Assembly: GCA_028289135.1 (NCBI GenBank)
Contig: JAQGGW010000003.1
Location: 2,015 to 66,014, forward strand
From: Candidatus Saccharimonadota bacterium
Lineage (GTDB): Bacteria > Patescibacteriota > Saccharimonadia > Saccharimonadales > JACDBH01
Reading direction: 5' to 3'
Length of the DNA stretch: 64,000 nt
The notes under the pieces are model-generated. The model was given only the letters and a program-made list of their open reading frames with translations. It made no database searches and was not told where the DNA came from. The position numbers and the translations under genes are program-made. Shown here in pieces: positions 6,642-46,817 of the stretch; positions within the stretch are counted from its first letter, which is position 1, and each line of letters opens with the position of its first letter.

Positions 6642-8165
6642 ATGAATACAACCAGCGAGAAAATTGGTCACTTAATTTACCAAGTACGGCAAGAAAAAGG
6701 CCTAACCCAGGCTGAATTTGCCAAACGGCTGAACACATCGCAGTCGGCAGTTAACCGTATTGAACACGGGCACCAAAACCTTAGCATGGATATGCTAGGC
6801 CGGATTAGCGATGTTTTAAACAAGCAGATTATTAGCCTAAACACCAACGCCGTTTCACTCCGGATTGAAGGCGGCCACAAACTAAGCGGTGAGATTTCGG
6901 TTAAAACCAGCAAGAACGCTGCCGTTGGCCTGATCTGCGCTTCGCTACTTAACAAAGGCACGACCAAACTTAAGTCCGTTGCCCGCATCGAAGAAGTTAA
7001 CCGCCTGGTTGAAGTGCTTGAAAGCATTGGCGTAAAAGTCCGTTGGCTGCCCGGAAACGACCTGGAGATCAAACCGCCCGCCAAACTTAATCTTGAAAAT
7101 ATCAACGGTATAGCCGCACGCAAAACCCGCAGCGTTATCATGTTTGTCGGCGCGCTAATGCACGATTATAAAGAATTTAAGATCCCCTATGCCGGCGGCT
7201 GTGAACTTGGCAAACGAACGGTTTTGCCGCACATTTACGCGCTTGAAGAATTTGGAACGAACATCATCGCCAAAACCGGGCATTACAACATTACGTCCAA
7301 GCTCAAACTCCCAAAGCGCGATGTGGTTTTGTACGAATCCGGCGATACAACTACCGAAAACGCCTTGATGGCCGCGGCTGGATTTGAAGGCGAAACGGTT
7401 ATTAAAATGGCAAGCGCTAACTATGCAATCCAGGACATGTGTTTCTTCTTGCAAAAGCTCGGCGTCAAAATTGACGGCATCGGCACGACAACTTTGCGCG
7501 TCCGCGGCCAAAAGCGCATGAAGAAAAACATTAGCTACGCTCCAAGCGAAGACCCGGTTGAGGCCATGACTTTTATTGCGGCCGCGATTGCGACCGACTC
7601 AACGATTACTATCAAGCGCGCGCCGATTGACTTCTTAGAACTTGAACTTTTAAAGCTAGAAAAAATGGGACTGCGCTATGACACAAGCGAAAAATACAAG
7701 GCTGAAAATAATAAAACCGACCTGGTTGACCTAACTATCCACGAACACAATGGCAAGCTGATTGCGCCGGAAGACAAGCTCTATGGCCGCCCTTTCCCTG
7801 GCCTAAACATCGACAACTTACCGTATTTTGTGCCGATTGTAGCTGTTGCCAAAGGCCGCAGCATGATCCACGACTGGGTTTACGAAGACCGCGCGCTGAT
7901 GTTTACCGAAATGAAAAAGATTGGCGTTGACCTGGAGCTAGCCGACCCGCACCGGGTGTTTATTAACGGCCCAACCCGCTGGCGCGCCGCCGATTTAGTT
8001 TGCCCAAGCGGCATCCGCCCGGCAGTTATTATTTTAATCGGCATGCTGGCCGCAACCGGCACCTCCATGCTTCGCAATGTCTACACAATCAACCGCGGTT
8101 ATGAAGACCTGGCCGAGCGTTTGAATTCCCTTGGTGCGCACATCGGCATCGTTCACGAAGTATAA
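6642..8165 (+). CDS. murA: UDP-N-acetylglucosamine 1-carboxyvinyltransferase with N-terminal XRE-type HTH domain
   Basis: Residues 1-65 form an HTH (LTQAEFAKRLNTSQSAVNRIEHG). The rest is MurA/EPSP-synthase fold (GGHKLSGEISVKTSKNAA) with an active-site loop AGGCELGKRTVLPH that retains the Cys. Confidence 0.85.
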   Translation: MNTTSEKIGHLIYQVRQEKGLTQAEFAKRLNTSQSAVNRIEHGHQNLSMDMLGRISDVLNKQIISLNTNAVSLRIEGGHKLSGEISVKTSKNAAVGLICASLLNKGTTKLKSVARIEEVNRLVEVLESIGVKVRWLPGNDLEIKPPAKLNLENINGIAARKTRSVIMFVGALMHDYKEFKIPYAGGCELGKRTVLPHIYALEEFGTNIIAKTGHYNITSKLKLPKRDVVLYESGDTTTENALMAAAGFEGETVIKMASANYAIQDMCFFLQKLGVKIDGIGTTTLRVRGQKRMKKNISYAPSEDPVEAMTFIAAAIATDSTITIKRAPIDFLELELLKLEKMGLRYDTSEKYKAENNKTDLVDLTIHEHNGKLIAPEDKLYGRPFPGLNIDNLPYFVPIVAVAKGRSMIHDWVYEDRALMFTEMKKIGVDLELADPHRVFINGPTRWRAADLVCPSGIRPAVIILIGMLAATGTSMLRNVYTINRGYEDLAERLNSLGAHIGIVHEV

Positions 8166-10494: not shown

Positions 10495-10571
10495 GCACCC
10501 GTAGCTCAGCTGGATAGAGCAATGGGCTTCTATCCCACAGGTCGGGGGTTCGAATCCCTCCGGGTGTACCA
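10495..10571 (+). tRNA. tRNA-Arg (anticodon TCT)
   Basis: Acceptor GCACCCG/CGGGTGT (G1-U72), anticodon loop CTTCTAT, T-arm GGGGG-TTCGAAT-CCCTC, encoded CCA. Confidence 0.88.
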
Positions 10572-10578
10572 ATAAAAA

Positions 10579-10606
10579 AGTCTCACCGCTAGGTGGGGCT
10601 TTTTTA
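10579..10606 (+). terminator. rho-independent terminator after the tRNA pair
   Basis: AGTCTCACC-GCTA-GGTGGGGCT (9 bp including 2 G-U pairs) followed by TTTTTT. Confidence 0.7.
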
Positions 10607-10610
10607 TTGG

Positions 10611-10824
10611 CCGCGAGGGATTCAAACGCCTTGGCCAAAAAGGTCGGGGTGAAAAATGCCAGTGGCATTTTGCAAGGAAATCTTCACTTGGCAACTTGTT
10701 GCCAAAGCAGAAGTTTCGGGCTCGCCAAAGGCGAGTTGAATCCCTGATTGTTAACCTAAGAAGTTTATAAAAACGAAGTTTCTGGCCTGCTGAAAGCAGG
10801 TCGAATCCCTACAATATGTTCTAA
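10611..10824 (+). repeat. array of short hairpins with two tandem 65-nt-spaced units ending in tRNA T-arm-like GAATCCCT
   Basis: The units at 10710 and 10775 share GAAGTTTC[G/T]GG-hairpin-T[T/C]GAATCCCT. The hairpin stems differ but stay complementary (CTCGCC/GGCGAG versus CCTGC/GCAGG). A third, inverted GAATCCCT lies at 10617-10624. Confidence 0.55.
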
Positions 10825-43023: not shown

Positions 43024-44484
43024 CTAATTCTGTAGGATCGTTTCAGGATTTACATCTGTTATAGTATCACTTTTGCGATTTTTACGCCAGAGCACGATCA
43101 GAACCAATACCATTGCCGCGTACATAATAATCATACCCATAAGGCTCACTGTGACAGAGATTTTCATATGCGGAACCCTAGCAAACATCGTCGCCATTTC
43201 TAGCAGATAAGTCAGCACCCAACGCGCCGGGAACGCCAGCCAGCCGGCAATTGGCGCAATAAACATCCCGGCCAGCCCGGCGATAAAGCTCAGCAGCATT
43301 GCCAGCGGAATTAGCGGCACGACCAAAATGTTGGCCGGCAGCGCGATAAAGCTGGAAGTCTTAAAAATATATAAAATAATCGGCACCGTCATAATCTGTG
43401 CCGAAAGTGTTTCCATAATAAGCTCACCAATAATCCCTCGCGGCTCCCCGCTAAACAAGCGGTGGCGGACAAGCGGCCCCAAAATTAAAACGCCAAAGAA
43501 TGCGAGGAATGACAAATACCAGCCGATGTCCGACCATATATAAAGCGGATTCCACAGCGCTGTTAAAGCAGCCGCAAACAGAATTAACAGCAGCGGTTTT
43601 ATTGTCCGGCCATAATACCAAGCGCCCAAACTTAAAGAGCTAATTATTGCCGCGCGGACGATCGACGCGCTTAGGCCTGTTACTAATAAAAATCCAAGGA
43701 TTAATGCTTGCGATCCGACAAAAGTTTGGAACTTTGACCAACGTCCAAAAATTTTCTTGCCAGCGCGCATCATAATTGTCAGGTTATAGCCCGACACCGC
43801 GATGATATGACTCAGCCCAACGGCGGCCAAGATTGTCGTAATGGTCGCTGGCAGTGTGTTGCGCTGCCCAATCAAAAGCCCGAGCGCAAAGGATGCCAAA
43901 GGTTCCGGTAAAGTGTTTTGCAACCCCACCGTAAAGTGCCGCGTGATGCTATAGGCAACCGAATGCGACTGCCCGGTTATATTAAAATTTGAGTAGCTTA
44001 AATACGCCACAACCGAGCCGCGCGCCGGATAAAACTTGCCCGTAACCGTAATGTGATCACCTCTAAAGACCATGTTTTCGCCAAAACCAGACACGCCAAT
44101 TTTGCCAACAATATTTTTCTGATACGGCTCCTCCAAATGCAGGTTGCCAACATCAAAACTCAGCTGCGAGTTTTTGCCATACACCCCGTCTGTTAAAACC
44201 GTCCCTGTTACTGTCACGCTACGTTTGCTAAGGCCCGCAAGCTCACGAACATGTGCCATATACACCCCGCCGCGACACCAACCAAGCGTAAATCCAAAAA
44301 TTATAACTGCGTACAAAGAAAACAGCCGGGCCCTGCGGAAGCTTAGCAGTACCAAAGCCGCTAAGATCCATATGTAAACAAAAGAAAGCGCTGGCGCAAA
44401 CCGCGCCCAGCCAAGCCCCAACAAAACCGTGCCAAACAATACTGTTAATCTGGTCGTGCGCCGGTATGTTCTCTGAGCTTTCAT
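43024..44484 (-). CDS. comEC: ComEC/Rec2 DNA-internalisation channel protein (no C-terminal metallo-beta-lactamase domain)
   Basis: Polytopic, with a competence-domain motif AAVGLSHIIAVSGYNLTIM. 486 aa. Confidence 0.8.
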   Translation of the reverse strand: MKAQRTYRRTTRLTVLFGTVLLGLGWARFAPALSFVYIWILAALVLLSFRRARLFSLYAVIIFGFTLGWCRGGVYMAHVRELAGLSKRSVTVTGTVLTDGVYGKNSQLSFDVGNLHLEEPYQKNIVGKIGVSGFGENMVFRGDHITVTGKFYPARGSVVAYLSYSNFNITGQSHSVAYSITRHFTVGLQNTLPEPLASFALGLLIGQRNTLPATITTILAAVGLSHIIAVSGYNLTIMMRAGKKIFGRWSKFQTFVGSQALILGFLLVTGLSASIVRAAIISSLSLGAWYYGRTIKPLLLILFAAALTALWNPLYIWSDIGWYLSFLAFFGVLILGPLVRHRLFSGEPRGIIGELIMETLSAQIMTVPIILYIFKTSSFIALPANILVVPLIPLAMLLSFIAGLAGMFIAPIAGWLAFPARWVLTYLLEMATMFARVPHMKISVTVSLMGMIIMYAAMVLVLIVLWRKNRKSDTITDVNPETILQN

Positions 44485-44553: not shown

Positions 44554-45741
44554 CTAATAAGACCAGACAGCAGCCCAATCAACTTCCAGATGTCCGTCTT
44601 GCGTGCACGTCGAAGGCGTCACTTGGTCGCACGTTGTCTTGGTTTCAGTCTGCAACTGCCAGCGTTCAGGCCCTGCCCATACAAAGCTTGTCGAACTGCC
44701 CACCTGTACGCCATCAAGATAATATTTTCTTTGGCCCGGCGACCATTCCTGGGTGTATGTATGCCACTGGGTGCGGTTCGCGCCGATTCCACTAATGGCT
44801 GTTTGATGCGAAGCACCGCCGCCGTCACAATAATGCGCAAAAGCACTAACTGTCGTATTGCCAAGAGCTCCTTCAGGATAGTCACTTTCGGCGCATGAGC
44901 CATTGGAGTTACTGCTCGGCCAAAGCAACCAGGCCTGGTAAAACTCACTTAGGTTTGAGGTTGTAGTCCTAAAGCGGATTTCATAACGGCCATATGTCTG
45001 GTATTCACTGCCGCCAGGCAAAACTGGAGAAGGGCTAGCTCCGGCAGGTACACCATCAACGTTATGCAGCCAAAAATCCAATACCCCATTATGAACACTT
45101 AGCACCTGGTCTGAACGATACTTCCGGCTTTGGTAGGTATCTTTATAGCAAGAAGGGTACGACTTCCACGGTGTCCCGCTTGCCCCCGTATAGTTAATAG
45201 TTGTTGTGCAGGTGGAGTTTCCCCAGGATCCTAATGCAGCATCTTTCGTGAAATTCTCATTAACTATTTGGTGCCACGTATGTCCACTGCTTGAAACATC
45301 ACCCGACGGTGCGCATTGCCCACTTGGGCAGGTCACGGTTGGGGCTGGAGTGGGTACCGGCGTTGGAATTGGGGCTGGAGTGGGTGTAGGAGTTGGGGTA
45401 GGCGTAGTTGAAGGCGCGGGCGTAGTCGTCGTGCCTCCCGGCTGTGAACCAGATCCAGTTGCCGGAGTTGGCGTAGTCGTAGTTTCTTTTTTCTCTGCAA
45501 CCGAACCAGTTGAAGGTTTTGGAGGCGTATTTGCCGTATCTGCCGGTATACCATTTATACCCGATTGCTGCTGTGTAATAACCGACATTACACTTCCGGT
45601 GACACCGCTCATTGATGAAATTAAATGTTTACCAAATAGCGGATATACCAGAGCTGAGGTAATTACTATTAATACAAGAGCCGTGGCCCCTAATGAGAAT
45701 AACCTCAGATGATTACTAACTATTTTTAAATACTTTTTCAT
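44554..45741 (-). CDS. secreted protein with Thr/Pro-rich linker and GH16/ConA-like glucanase domain
   Basis: Signal/TM segment, linker TPTPTPTPTPAPIPTPVPTPAPT, catalytic-type motif AESDYPE (ExDxxE), and YGRYEIRFR. Confidence 0.55.
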   Translation of the reverse strand: MKKYLKIVSNHLRLFSLGATALVLIVITSALVYPLFGKHLISSMSGVTGSVMSVITQQQSGINGIPADTANTPPKPSTGSVAEKKETTTTPTPATGSGSQPGGTTTTPAPSTTPTPTPTPTPAPIPTPVPTPAPTVTCPSGQCAPSGDVSSSGHTWHQIVNENFTKDAALGSWGNSTCTTTINYTGASGTPWKSYPSCYKDTYQSRKYRSDQVLSVHNGVLDFWLHNVDGVPAGASPSPVLPGGSEYQTYGRYEIRFRTTTSNLSEFYQAWLLWPSSNSNGSCAESDYPEGALGNTTVSAFAHYCDGGGASHQTAISGIGANRTQWHTYTQEWSPGQRKYYLDGVQVGSSTSFVWAGPERWQLQTETKTTCDQVTPSTCTQDGHLEVDWAAVWSY

Positions 45742-45822
45742 TTTTATTTTTGTTGTTACAACATATATTATACATTATAATTGCAAGACTTTAAATATCG
45801 CGCATAACTAAAAAGCTTAAGA

Positions 45823-45851
45823 TTGACTTTTTTATCAAAAAAACAGATAAT
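45823..45851 (+). promoter_or_regulatory. sigma70-type promoter upstream of the tRNA-Lys locus
   Basis: TTGACT (45823-45828)-N16/17-GATAAT/ATAATA. It lies about 35 nt upstream of the truncated tRNA copy. Confidence 0.5.
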
Positions 45852-45885
45852 AACCCCTGTATTTCGTATATGGCTAGTCCATTTG

Positions 45886-46008
45886 CGGGCCCGTAGCTCA
45901 GCTGGTTAGAGTGAGAACTGCCAGCGGCAGTTCGGAAACGAATCTTCCGATGAAAACTTGTTTTCAATCGCGAAGTTCGGGGGTCGCGGAACGTGACCCT
46001 GCCTTTTA
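45886..46008 (+). pseudogene. 5' half of tRNA-Lys(TTT) interrupted by an 86-nt structured insertion
   Basis: 45886-45910 matches the first 25 nt of the intact tRNA-Lys, and 45997-46008 (CCTGCCTTTTAA) matches its anticodon stem 5' strand plus loop. Between them lie 4 hairpins. No 3' half follows. Confidence 0.7.
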
Positions 46009-46047
46009 ACGAAATACAATGTACTTTTCCATTAAATCCACTATATG

Positions 46048-46124
46048 TGGGCCCGTAGCTCAGCTGGTTAGAGCACCTGCCTTTTAAGCAGGGTGTCGTG
46101 AGTTCAAGTCTCACCGGGCCCTCC
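46048..46124 (+). tRNA. tRNA-Lys (anticodon TTT)
   Basis: Acceptor GGGCCCG/CGGGCCC, anticodon loop CTTTTAA, T-loop TTCAAGT, encoded CCA. Confidence 0.92.
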
Positions 46125-46160
46125 ACGAAAAAAGACTTATAGCAAGATAGGTCTTTTTTC
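46125..46160 (+). terminator. hairpin terminator after tRNA-Lys
   Basis: CGAAAAAAGAC-loop14-GTCTTTTTTCG, an 11-bp stem with a T-run inside its 3' arm. Confidence 0.6.
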
Positions 46161-46226
46161 GTGAGTAAGAACCGCAAATTACAAATATATATCGGGCAGC
46201 TGCTCTACTTTTGATATACTTATGCC

Positions 46227-46817
46227 ATGCTTTTAAAAATCTATCAAACTGGACAGCCAGTCCTTAGAAATAATTCAAATAAAGTTAGTATAGATAAGCT
46301 TAATAAAAAGGAAACTCAGCAGCTTATTGATTTAATGATTGAAACGCTAAGAGACTCACCGGGTGTAGGTCTAGCTGCTCCGCAAGTTGGAGAACCATTA
46401 AGAATATTAATCGTCGAAGACTTGGCCAAATATCATGAGCAAATACCCATTGATGTTCTTAAGTCCCAAGAGCGTAAACCTGTGAAGCTAAAAGTATTTG
46501 TTAACCCTGAATTAGAAGTTATTGAGCAGGAAGAAGCATTATTTTTTGAAGGCTGCTTAAGCGTAGACGGCTATGTTGCAGCTGTGCCTAGAGCTAAAAC
46601 AGTAAAAATAGATGCCGTCGACCGGTACGGTAAACCTATTAGCTATACTGCAAAGGGTTGGTTTGCGAGGATCTTACAGCATGAATACGATCACTTAAAT
46701 GGCACTCTGATGATTGATCGAATGAAAACTAATAGCTTTATGAACCAAAAGAATTTCAATAGTTTATGGCGTAAGGCTCTGCCAAGTAAAATAAAGAAAG
46801 AATTTGGCAACCAGTAG
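46227..46817 (+). CDS. def: peptide deformylase
   Basis: All three PDF motifs are present: GVGLAAPQVG, EGCLSV and HEYDHLNG. 196 aa. Confidence 0.93.
   Translation: MLLKIYQTGQPVLRNNSNKVSIDKLNKKETQQLIDLMIETLRDSPGVGLAAPQVGEPLRILIVEDLAKYHEQIPIDVLKSQERKPVKLKVFVNPELEVIEQEEALFFEGCLSVDGYVAAVPRAKTVKIDAVDRYGKPISYTAKGWFARILQHEYDHLNGTLMIDRMKTNSFMNQKNFNSLWRKALPSKIKKEFGNQ

Follow-up and report, generated by a model that had tools for sequence, protein, structure and literature searches.

A family of small structured elements associated with partial tRNA gene copies in Saccharibacteria

The 86-nt insert that splits a half tRNA-Lys in the window (the whole 64,000-nt stretch of DNA analysed here) is, as judged from sequence comparison, one copy of a widespread Saccharibacteria family of small, folded elements lacking open reading frames (ORFs). 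The family is apparently undescribed so far: the literature search returned no description of such an element, the sole related work found being that on group I introns within Patescibacteria tRNA genes. The compensatory changes among its copies indicate that the element is a conserved structured RNA in the sense of an Rfam family, i.e., that the copies share one secondary structure on one strand, and they show that strand-specific purifying selection acts on this fold.

The tRNA-Lys locus and the second copy of the window

The features of the tRNA-Lys locus described below are all on the + strand. The locus begins with a putative sigma-70-like promoter (TTGACT-17-GATAAT, 45823..45851, 10/12 matches), with a predicted start at ~45858, upstream of the partial tRNA-Lys copy. 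This is the best-scoring promoter-like site of the region. It had been taken for the only one when the locus was read from its letters alone (hereafter, the sequence-only reading), but the scan lists two more, at 45753-45781 and at 45993-46020, the latter just before the intact tRNA.

The partial copy opens with nt 1-25 of tRNA-Lys (acceptor 5′ strand and D arm) at 45887..45911, identical to 46049-46073. The 25-nt sequence GGGCCCGTAGCTCAGCTGGTTAGAG is thus present twice, at 45887-45911 and 46049-46073, and such matches occurred in no shuffle; the duplication of the first 25 nt of tRNA-Lys(TTT) had been recognised by the sequence-only reading, with a start off by one. The structured element, running from UGAGAAC to CGUGAC and supported by the covariance model and covariation, follows at 45912..45997, and the 86-nt insert between the two tRNA fragments is as had been reported. 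Then comes a short 3′ flank (45998..46009) corresponding to tRNA-Lys nt 27-38, the anticodon stem 5′ strand and loop. Its 12-nt sequence, CCTGCCTTTTAA, is found at both 45998-46009 and 46076-46087, which bears out the earlier observation that the tRNA sequence resumes for 12 nt.

The following 39-nt spacer (46010..46048) contains a −10-like TACAAT (46015-46020), and a GTGACC lies 16 nt upstream of this box, within hairpin C of the element. The intact tRNA-Lys(UUU) is at 46049..46125 (ARAGORN and Rfam, 72.4 bits), i.e., 39 nt past the 12-mer, as previously described, and a terminator hairpin (46124..46163, an inverted repeat with 17-nt arms) overlaps its CCA end. Neither ARAGORN nor Rfam, which were used for the tRNA detection suggested earlier, called a tRNA in the upstream copy, and 46049-46125 was the only call. 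Considering that the promoter and terminator scan found no terminator between the partial and the intact tRNA-Lys copies, and that a strong promoter lies upstream of both, co-transcription of the partial copy with the intact tRNA-Lys is plausible.

A perfect 10-bp inverted repeat surrounds the partial tRNA and the element, with its 5′ arm, TGTATTTCGT, at 45858..45867 and its 3′ arm, ACGAAATACA, at 46009..46018. The repeat is modestly significant (43/1000 and 1/300 shuffles in two tests); when 45855-46021 is folded (z = −5.7), it makes up the outer helix. The half-tRNA unit of the window is closed on itself by helices.

Downstream of tRNA-Lys, a peptide deformylase is encoded at 46227, with 100% identity to a protein attributed to a Candidatus Saccharibacteria bacterium. 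The homologues of this gene lie in other neighbourhoods, without tRNA-Lys, and a BLAST search of the window flanks against all the tRNA-Lys loci found no syntenic locus.

A second copy of the element, of the downstream type, is located at 10642..10745 on the + strand (95.7 bits), after tRNA-Arg(UCU) (10495-10571, +). The profile of the insert also matched the window here, at 10647-10731, 3′ of tRNA-Arg(tct). A terminator lies between the tRNA and this copy, and the unit includes an inverted copy of the T-arm at about 10615-10627. The core of the copy (10650-10736, +) is bordered by GGUCGGGG (10642-10649, +), derived from the variable loop and the T-stem 5′ strand, and by UGAAUCCCU (10737-10745, +), derived from the T-loop and the 3′ part of the T-stem. 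Searching the insert against the genome and Rfam, as the sequence-only reading had proposed, thus returned a second copy within the window and no Rfam family.

Extent of the family and conservation of its fold

Species-representative genomes were scanned with the tRNA-Lys sequence, independently of the insert, yielding 121 genes in 120 loci. A matching arrangement was found at locus L065, where the half-tRNA bears that genome's own acceptor variant. The profile of the insert found about ten of these tRNA-Lys loci positive, mostly downstream of the tRNA. The covariance model R1 identified 10 copies in 100 Saccharibacteria tRNA-Lys loci, all adjoining the tRNA, and the distribution of the element at tRNA-Lys is patchy across species (~10% of loci). 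On a larger scale, a degenerate pattern scan showed that at least 120 metagenome loci carry the element, and R1 confirms 122 copies in 99 metagenome loci plus the window. Among the matches listed, the hosts are tRNAs of about 20 specificities, almost always on the same strand, and up to three copies per contig are present; two are found in the 64-kb window.

With R1, the window copies reached 106 bits (Lys) and 96 bits (Arg) on the + strand and about 12 bits on the − strand; the hit to the Lys copy (45904-46007) had 106 bits and E = 8e-28 on the plus strand, against 12.6 bits on the minus strand. Beyond these two copies, no other R1 match in the 64-kb window scored well. Rfam 15 has no model for the element: searches at the gathering score, and at E up to 10 over 45700-46200, returned nothing for the insert, and Rfam was likewise silent on further core-bearing hosts and on the inserts of unrelated sequence found at the same position in L075 and L024.

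To obtain the fold, RNAalifold was applied to 10 copies that had been collected without reference to the core sequence and aligned with MAFFT. It consists of four helices forming a four-way junction, namely P1, which is built from the flanks, and the hairpins A, B, and C. Hairpin A (45915-45933 in the window element) has 8 bp, a triloop, and a GCC-NGY-GGC top. A 5-nt linker, GCAAG or GGAAA (the latter in the window, 45934-45938), separates it from hairpin B (45939-45979), which is long and has two single-base bulges and a CUUG-type loop. Hairpin C (45982-45998) has 7 bp, an RAA triloop, and a conserved G•U pair. In the window copy, the basal helix P1 pairs the GAG of the D stem (45909-45911) with the CUU of the anticodon loop (46003-46005), the 3′ strand being supplied by the short flank at 45998-46009.

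In the 10-copy alignment, compensatory changes occur in 23/36 pairs. We then considered a 122-sequence alignment, which was fitted to model R1. Over 119 distinct sequences among the matches listed, all the pairs (36/36) change on both sides, and the level of pairing is 94.6%, compared to 70.9% in shuffled sequences and 30-52% when the partners are slid. Furthermore, one G•U pair is kept in 104/112 sequences (among the matches listed). The metagenome pattern fixed about 21 bases, the hairpin A top and a number of unpaired positions included, so that the conservation seen at unpaired bases and at the hairpin A top is partly built in; P1, hairpin B, and most of hairpin C were free of pattern constraint.

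The four hairpins that had been read from the sequence were only in part those of the conserved fold. Covariation supports 45915-45933, the tip of 45939-45979, and 45982-45998, but not the GGAA/TTCC hairpin, for which double changes numbered 0 and the level of pairing (74%) was that of the shuffles; this pairing would also compete with the lower stem of hairpin B, where covariation is strong. A GNRA mini-hairpin, UUCG-GAAA-CGAA, was considered and found unsupported, its bases belonging to hairpin A, the linker, and hairpin B.

The cores of the window and of L065 are 95% identical, and their three substitutions and one indel all fall in loops or in a bulge or correspond to an A-U to G•U change. 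Between the same two loci, tRNA-Lys is identical at 70/77 positions (91%) and the spacer at about 45%. Given the difference between the 95% of the core and the about 45% of the spacer, the element is maintained rather than decaying, either by selection on its own propagation or by an activity of the RNA in place. The comparison with relatives suggested by the sequence-only reading clearly returned conserved insert hairpins, and not the random decay of unconserved ones.

Insertion sites and the duplication of tRNA sequence

Among the matches listed, 94/97 of the tRNAs within 260 nt are on the same strand as the element, and the tRNA starts ~150-165 nt before or ~125-165 nt after the core. The upstream and downstream arrangements are about equally common in this set, with some tRNAs flanked on both sides. 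An intact tRNA gene lies ~40-80 nt from the partial copy in nearly all the units among the matches listed, and the flanks that touch the core are pieces of the adjacent tRNA.

Upstream units have the order promoter, leader, nt 1-X, core, 8-12 nt more, spacer with a −10-like box, and intact tRNA; as in the window, the spacers of other upstream-type copies contain a TATAAT/TACAAT box. The value of X is 53-54 (T-loop) in most upstream units among the matches listed, 24-25 in the Lys-UUU, Lys-CUU, Gly-GCC, Phe, and Gln-UUG copies, and 17 (D-loop) or 37-39 (anticodon loop) in other upstream units. Downstream units have the order tRNA, terminator, inverted nt ~45-62, nt 43-54, core, nt 57-76 plus CCA, and second terminator.

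At base resolution, the junctions follow one rule: the 85-88-nt UGAGAA...GUGAC comes after a G and replaces 1-2 nt of the target. In tRNA copies, insertion is seen in the T-loop (54/55), at the 25/26 hinge, and in the D-loop and anticodon loop. The window Lys copy belongs to the 25/26 subtype, and its layout is also found in L065, in L142 (a Lys CUU copy, where the short flank follows the CUU anticodon), and in the Gly-GCC, Phe, and Gln copies. The flank on the truncated side is regularly 8-12 nt long, just sufficient for P1.

tRNA copies are not the only hosts: some cores lie in the loops of non-tRNA hairpins, beside an intact copy of the same hairpin. Antisense copies are rare, and they too come after a G, at a different point. 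In other genomes, unrelated inserts of similar size are present at the same T-loop position of partial tRNA-Lys copies.

The identity to the tRNA often ends exactly at the mature termini of the tRNA. A copying of the flanks from mature tRNA via an RNA intermediate was evaluated and set aside, since some copies (L142, L157, L166, L186, and L191) also duplicate the −10 box and the leader, or the terminator; for the same reason, the duplication is an event at the DNA level. Within the window, the similarity between the two leaders of the tRNA-Lys locus is not significant.

In 38/46 downstream units among the matches listed, the segment that begins at tRNA nt 43 and extends to the short flank forms a long, imperfect palindrome (z of at least 8), whose centre is the terminator loop. 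For the Arg-linked copy of the window, the palindrome has z = 10.2. The downstream examples that were folded contain a direct, an inverted, and a direct copy, with the core in the last copy only. This pattern indicates that the downstream-type duplications are palindromic triplications with a direct-inverted-direct layout, and their junctions fall in the terminator hairpin loop and in a short loop near nt 43-44. Among the upstream-type copies listed, an inverted remnant after the short flank was found in 1/34, namely the window copy alone; we would suggest, weakly, that its 10-bp closing repeat could be this remnant.

The tRNA 3′ part of the downstream units has the same layout as the inverted triplications generated by template switching. 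The tandem inversion duplications of Salmonella are template-switch rearrangements of like layout. The ODIRA model explains inverted triplications by template switching at short inverted repeats (PMC4689423). Unlike triplications of the ODIRA type, those linked to the element have a repeat unit of just ~75 nt, recur at many tRNA genes, and always carry the inserted element in the third copy.

Probable mobility and possible nature of the element

The presence of near-identical cores at different tRNAs, the nesting of one copy in another, and the patchy distribution suggest that the element probably is, or was, mobile. The cores of a His downstream copy and a Leu upstream copy are 94% identical, and in a triple tandem array one core sits inside hairpin C of another. 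The nearest-neighbour core shares the isotype in 19/88 cases (among the matches listed), which rules out a long-term co-inheritance of the core with one tRNA isotype. We also evaluated the terminator and the spacer as parts of the mobile unit and discarded them: closely related cores at different tRNAs do not have them in common, which argues that what moves is the core alone.

No transposase, integrase, reverse transcriptase, or homing endonuclease adjoins any of the copies examined, and the neighbouring ORFs of the units are housekeeping genes. The element has no terminal inverted repeats, its ends (UGAGAA... and ...GUGAC) not being inverted repeats of each other, and it does not produce the usual short target-site duplication: 1-2 nt of the target are lost instead, and the short flank of 8-12 nt is part of a far longer duplication.

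On balance, we favour as probable the reading of a selfish, ORF-less, structured insertion element, which colonises tRNA-shaped loops and survives only in redundant partial copies. The element would insert 3′ of a G in the single-stranded loop of a tRNA-shaped sequence, replacing 1-2 nt. As tRNA genes are essential, its copies would be visible only in a redundant partial duplicate beside the intact gene. In the window, this duplicate retains nt 1-25 and nt 27-38 of tRNA-Lys, together with the leader and the putative promoter. The element may be transcribed from 45823-45851 as the 5′ portion of the precursor of tRNA-Lys and freed once RNase P cleaves the 5′ end of the real tRNA at 46049; the closing helices could keep the tRNA-derived flanks from disturbing the folding of the real tRNA. 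The partial duplications themselves may arise when replication or repair switches template at the hairpins of the tRNA and of the terminator; the direct-inverted-direct triplications so formed would later collapse. The sequence-only reading had considered that the locus could be what is left of a mobile or intron-like insertion into an earlier second copy of tRNA-Lys. The comparative data largely bear this out, as a discrete conserved element does occur in partial copies of many tRNAs. Two corrections apply: the fold is under purifying selection and is not that of a decaying relic, and the exons are incomplete in nearly all copies, which does not fit an intron of a functional gene.

A bolder proposal, which we consider possible but hold tentatively, is that the family represents a new class of small, ORF-less mobile RNA, maybe a ribozyme or the substrate of an enzyme, that targets exposed tRNA-shaped loops after a G, and whose insertion is coupled to a fold-back, direct-inverted-direct duplication of the target that regenerates the essential tRNA gene beside the interrupted copy.

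Among the known systems, the closest category would be that of small non-autonomous insertions in stable-RNA genes, with a real chance that the element has a more unusual nature. MITEs (e.g., the Correia elements), REP/BIME sequences, and the Rickettsia palindromic elements are short, ORF-less, hairpin-rich, multi-copy, and co-transcribed with adjacent genes. Like the element described here, such repeats are found in reduced genomes and are tolerated inside the sequence of other genes. With respect to these repeats as we know them, the element differs in having neither terminal inverted repeats nor a short target duplication, in diverging in sequence while its pairs covary instead of forming near-identical bursts, and in its strict preference for the loops of tRNA-shaped targets. 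The intervening sequences of rRNA genes, including those of the candidate phyla radiation, are folded insertions at helix tips that interrupt a functional gene and are excised from the rRNA. They share with the element the condition of extra folded segments in stable-RNA genes, but the element avoids the functional copy. Other candidates were dropped: the guide RNAs of TnpB/IscB and the bridge RNAs of IS110, as no nuclease or recombinase gene is adjacent; attC sites, as the R-box is absent; Y RNAs, as the Ro-binding stems are absent; tmRNA, as the tag ORF is absent; and box C/D guides, as the conserved C and D boxes are absent.

It is rather unlikely, in our judgement, that the element serves the host as a cis-acting RNA module within tRNA transcription units. 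In such a module, a constant folded scaffold would carry the tRNA-derived flanks, and it might recruit a factor for processing or modification, insulate the precursor or make it more stable, or titrate a protein that binds tRNA. The strand-specific purifying selection acting on the fold and the conserved G•U pair are coherent with this reading, as are the core being better conserved than the adjacent tRNA between the window and L065, the 8-12 nt of the truncated side that just keep P1, and the location near a tRNA gene, almost always in the same orientation. Conversely, a module of this kind is hardly expected at only ~10% of the tRNA-Lys loci and at different tRNAs in different genomes, nor in non-tRNA hairpins, nested in itself, or occasionally antisense, and unrelated inserts take the same position in other genomes. 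Moreover, as the flanks are 5′ pieces in some copies and 3′ pieces in others, and four different loops are involved, no single pairing or mimicry scheme fits. One version of this reading is the decoy of the sequence-only reading, in which the 5′ half would pair with the 3′ half of the real tRNA. We found no specific support for it: the flanks vary with the host tRNA and the loop, many copies carry 3′ pieces of the tRNA instead of 5′ ones, and the unit of the window is closed on itself by helices.

Integration at tRNA genes classically leaves an intact tRNA accompanied by a partial copy close by, a trait that the element shares with the att duplications of integrases (prophages and integrative elements), in which the partial copy ends exactly at the tRNA terminus. 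The locus could thus be read as the remnant of a site-specific integrative element, the partial copy being an att-type duplication and the fold an arm near the crossover, with the island lost. The 5′-half duplications of the proviruses L008, L010, and L014, which end in the anticodon loop, and the downstream-type copies, which finish at the exact 3′ end of the tRNA, go in the same direction. We nonetheless regard this origin as very unlikely. The element splits the partial copy rather than adjoining it, and the copy is not a continuous stretch up to the terminus, being interrupted for 86 nt with 1-2 nt lost. The islands are uniformly tiny (~140-190 nt), have an inverted middle copy, carry no cargo, and never come with an integrase; near-identical cores are found at different tRNAs with flanks that are locally derived, and covariation of the RNA type is unexpected for protein-binding arm sites. 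In 2.9 million viral contigs, the pattern of the architecture gave 0 hits, and that of the core gave one chance match only, in a GC-rich coding region. The sequence-only reading had stated that this is not the usual 3′-end att duplication, which is right for the window Lys copy but not for the family, often located in 3′-end duplications, including that of the second window copy at tRNA-Arg.

There is very little left for the possibility that a functional tRNA, split or interrupted, contains the element as an intron or intervening sequence that is taken out of the RNA. The insertion points of the element are in loops, like those of archaeal non-canonical tRNA introns. Patescibacteria are rich in group I tRNA introns, which are ~200 nt or more in length, self-splicing, and located in the anticodon loop of complete genes (PMC13011429). 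As ORF-less structured insertions in tRNA loops of the same phylum, missed by standard annotation, the group I introns do resemble the element. The element is, however, 86 nt long, far below the size of a group I intron, and in most cases occupies the T-loop or the 25/26 hinge of gene copies that are incomplete; the exons are incomplete in almost every copy, with an intact tRNA gene alongside. No intron or ribozyme model of Rfam matches it: the group I intron model (P3-P8 core) gave no match at E up to 10, nor did the self-cleaving ribozymes hammerhead, twister, twister-sister, pistol, hatchet, HDV-like, and hairpin over 45700-46200, at E up to 10. In addition, removing the core in silico (36,069 splicing variants of 127 units, among the matches listed) restores a tRNA in ~2-4 units, and the splicing of the window copies gave no tRNA across the junction. 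As core removal almost never restores a tRNA, the element does not appear to be the intron of a working gene.

Lastly, a decayed duplicate of tRNA-Lys with fortuitous hairpins, which would account for the partial tRNA identity and nothing further, is refuted by more than 130 homologous copies with full covariation.

Saccharibacteria have tiny genomes in which tRNA genes are mostly single-copy. They are also naturally competent (PMC10633639). Here, we describe a folded family that has repeatedly colonised tRNA loci while sparing the tRNA, and that is missed by the annotation of tRNAs and RNA families. With the element, a phylum that is poorly known gains a structured-RNA family, a new one, and odd "half tRNAs" in Saccharibacteria genomes are accounted for. 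The many independent and very small inverted triplications could also reveal how duplications form at hairpins. If the fold is active, either as a catalyst or as the handle of a mobilising enzyme, the family would be a new kind of mobile element and possibly a tool directed to tRNA loops. If the tRNA gene is indeed regenerated upon insertion, this would be a route for a parasite into the single-copy essential genes of a minimal genome. If instead the element is used by the host, it would represent a new layer of control of tRNA gene expression in bacteria of the candidate phyla radiation.

A second copy of the element at tRNA-Arg(UCU)

The window carries a second copy of the element, located in the tRNA-Arg(UCU) locus (10495-10760). 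Its core, the ~86-nt structured unit with hairpins A, B and C, lies at 10650-10736, 3' of tRNA-Arg(UCU) and its terminator. The host is a partial 3' copy of this tRNA, which carries the core in its T-loop, and an inverted copy of the T-arm lies ahead of the core. Furthermore, the locus contains a long palindrome, centered on the terminator loop, that extends from nt 43 of tRNA-Arg to a short flank.

Hosts and insertion points of the core in other loci

Among the loci compared with the window, L235 (540-1250) showed three partial tRNA-Gln(UUG) copies arranged in tandem 5' of the intact gene, each with a core inserted after the D arm. In the third copy, one core is nested within hairpin C of another. 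In the cores of this locus, the hairpin C loop contains an additional hairpin, a feature shared with L032. In two tRNA-Gln(CUG) loci, L212 and L214, the leader and trailer that enclose the intact tRNA are complementary to each other (CACUACCUGG / CCAGGUAGCG), and 11 nt of T-loop/T-stem sequence are present on both sides of it as a direct repeat. It therefore looks as if the segment with the intact tRNA had split the upstream interrupted copy.

At tRNA-Phe, the core was found in a rare orientation: in L144 and L227 it lies antisense to the tRNA, on the opposite strand. Its insertion point follows CTGG and falls where the variable loop of a partial tRNA-Phe copy meets the T stem. The hosts also include a hairpin that is not a tRNA (AAAAGAGCCUACGGAGG^GGGU^GGGCACC...), which had no match in Rfam. 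In L145, L152, and L184 the cores are located in the loop of this hairpin and form short arrays, followed by an intact copy of the hairpin.

Other inserts and partial tRNA copies

At tRNA-Lys, five loci (L024 ~1300-1480, L075 ~7150-7370, L079, L088, and L061 ~800-950) harbor inserts of ~90-110 nt at the position used by the element, with a sequence that is unrelated to it or very divergent and without matches in Rfam. The terminator is followed by a partial 3' copy of tRNA-Lys, whose T-loop holds the insert, and an inverted T-arm piece is present 5' of the insert. Two other tRNA-Lys arrangements were observed: in L020, degenerate tRNA-Lys-like copies whose D and anticodon regions are altered follow one another in tandem, and in L121 a ~300-nt islet separates tRNA-Lys from a 35-nt 3' duplicate that has no insert in its T-loop.

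The proviral contigs L008, L010, and L014 (the first two being one IMG/VR contig) carry 5'-half copies of a tRNA-Met terminating in the anticodon loop, which shows that att-type duplication does affect the 5' side of tRNAs. In L008/L010, the intact tRNA-Met is present elsewhere on the same contig.

Surroundings of the tRNA-Lys locus in the window

The sequence GGCAGCTGCTCTA (46195-46207), ~30 nt 3' of the tRNA-Lys terminator and shortly ahead of the deformylase start (46227), matches the reverse complement of tRNA-Lys nt 21-33 (46069-46081) at 12 of 13 positions. The matched stretch includes the point (25/26) where the core is inserted in the partial tRNA-Lys copy. This sequence could be the remnant of an inverted copy, or a chance match.

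Two genes upstream of the locus, the minus strand encodes a ComEC-type competence protein (43024-44484). Its sole interest here is that natural transformation is a conceivable route for the spread of elements with conserved tRNA flanks.
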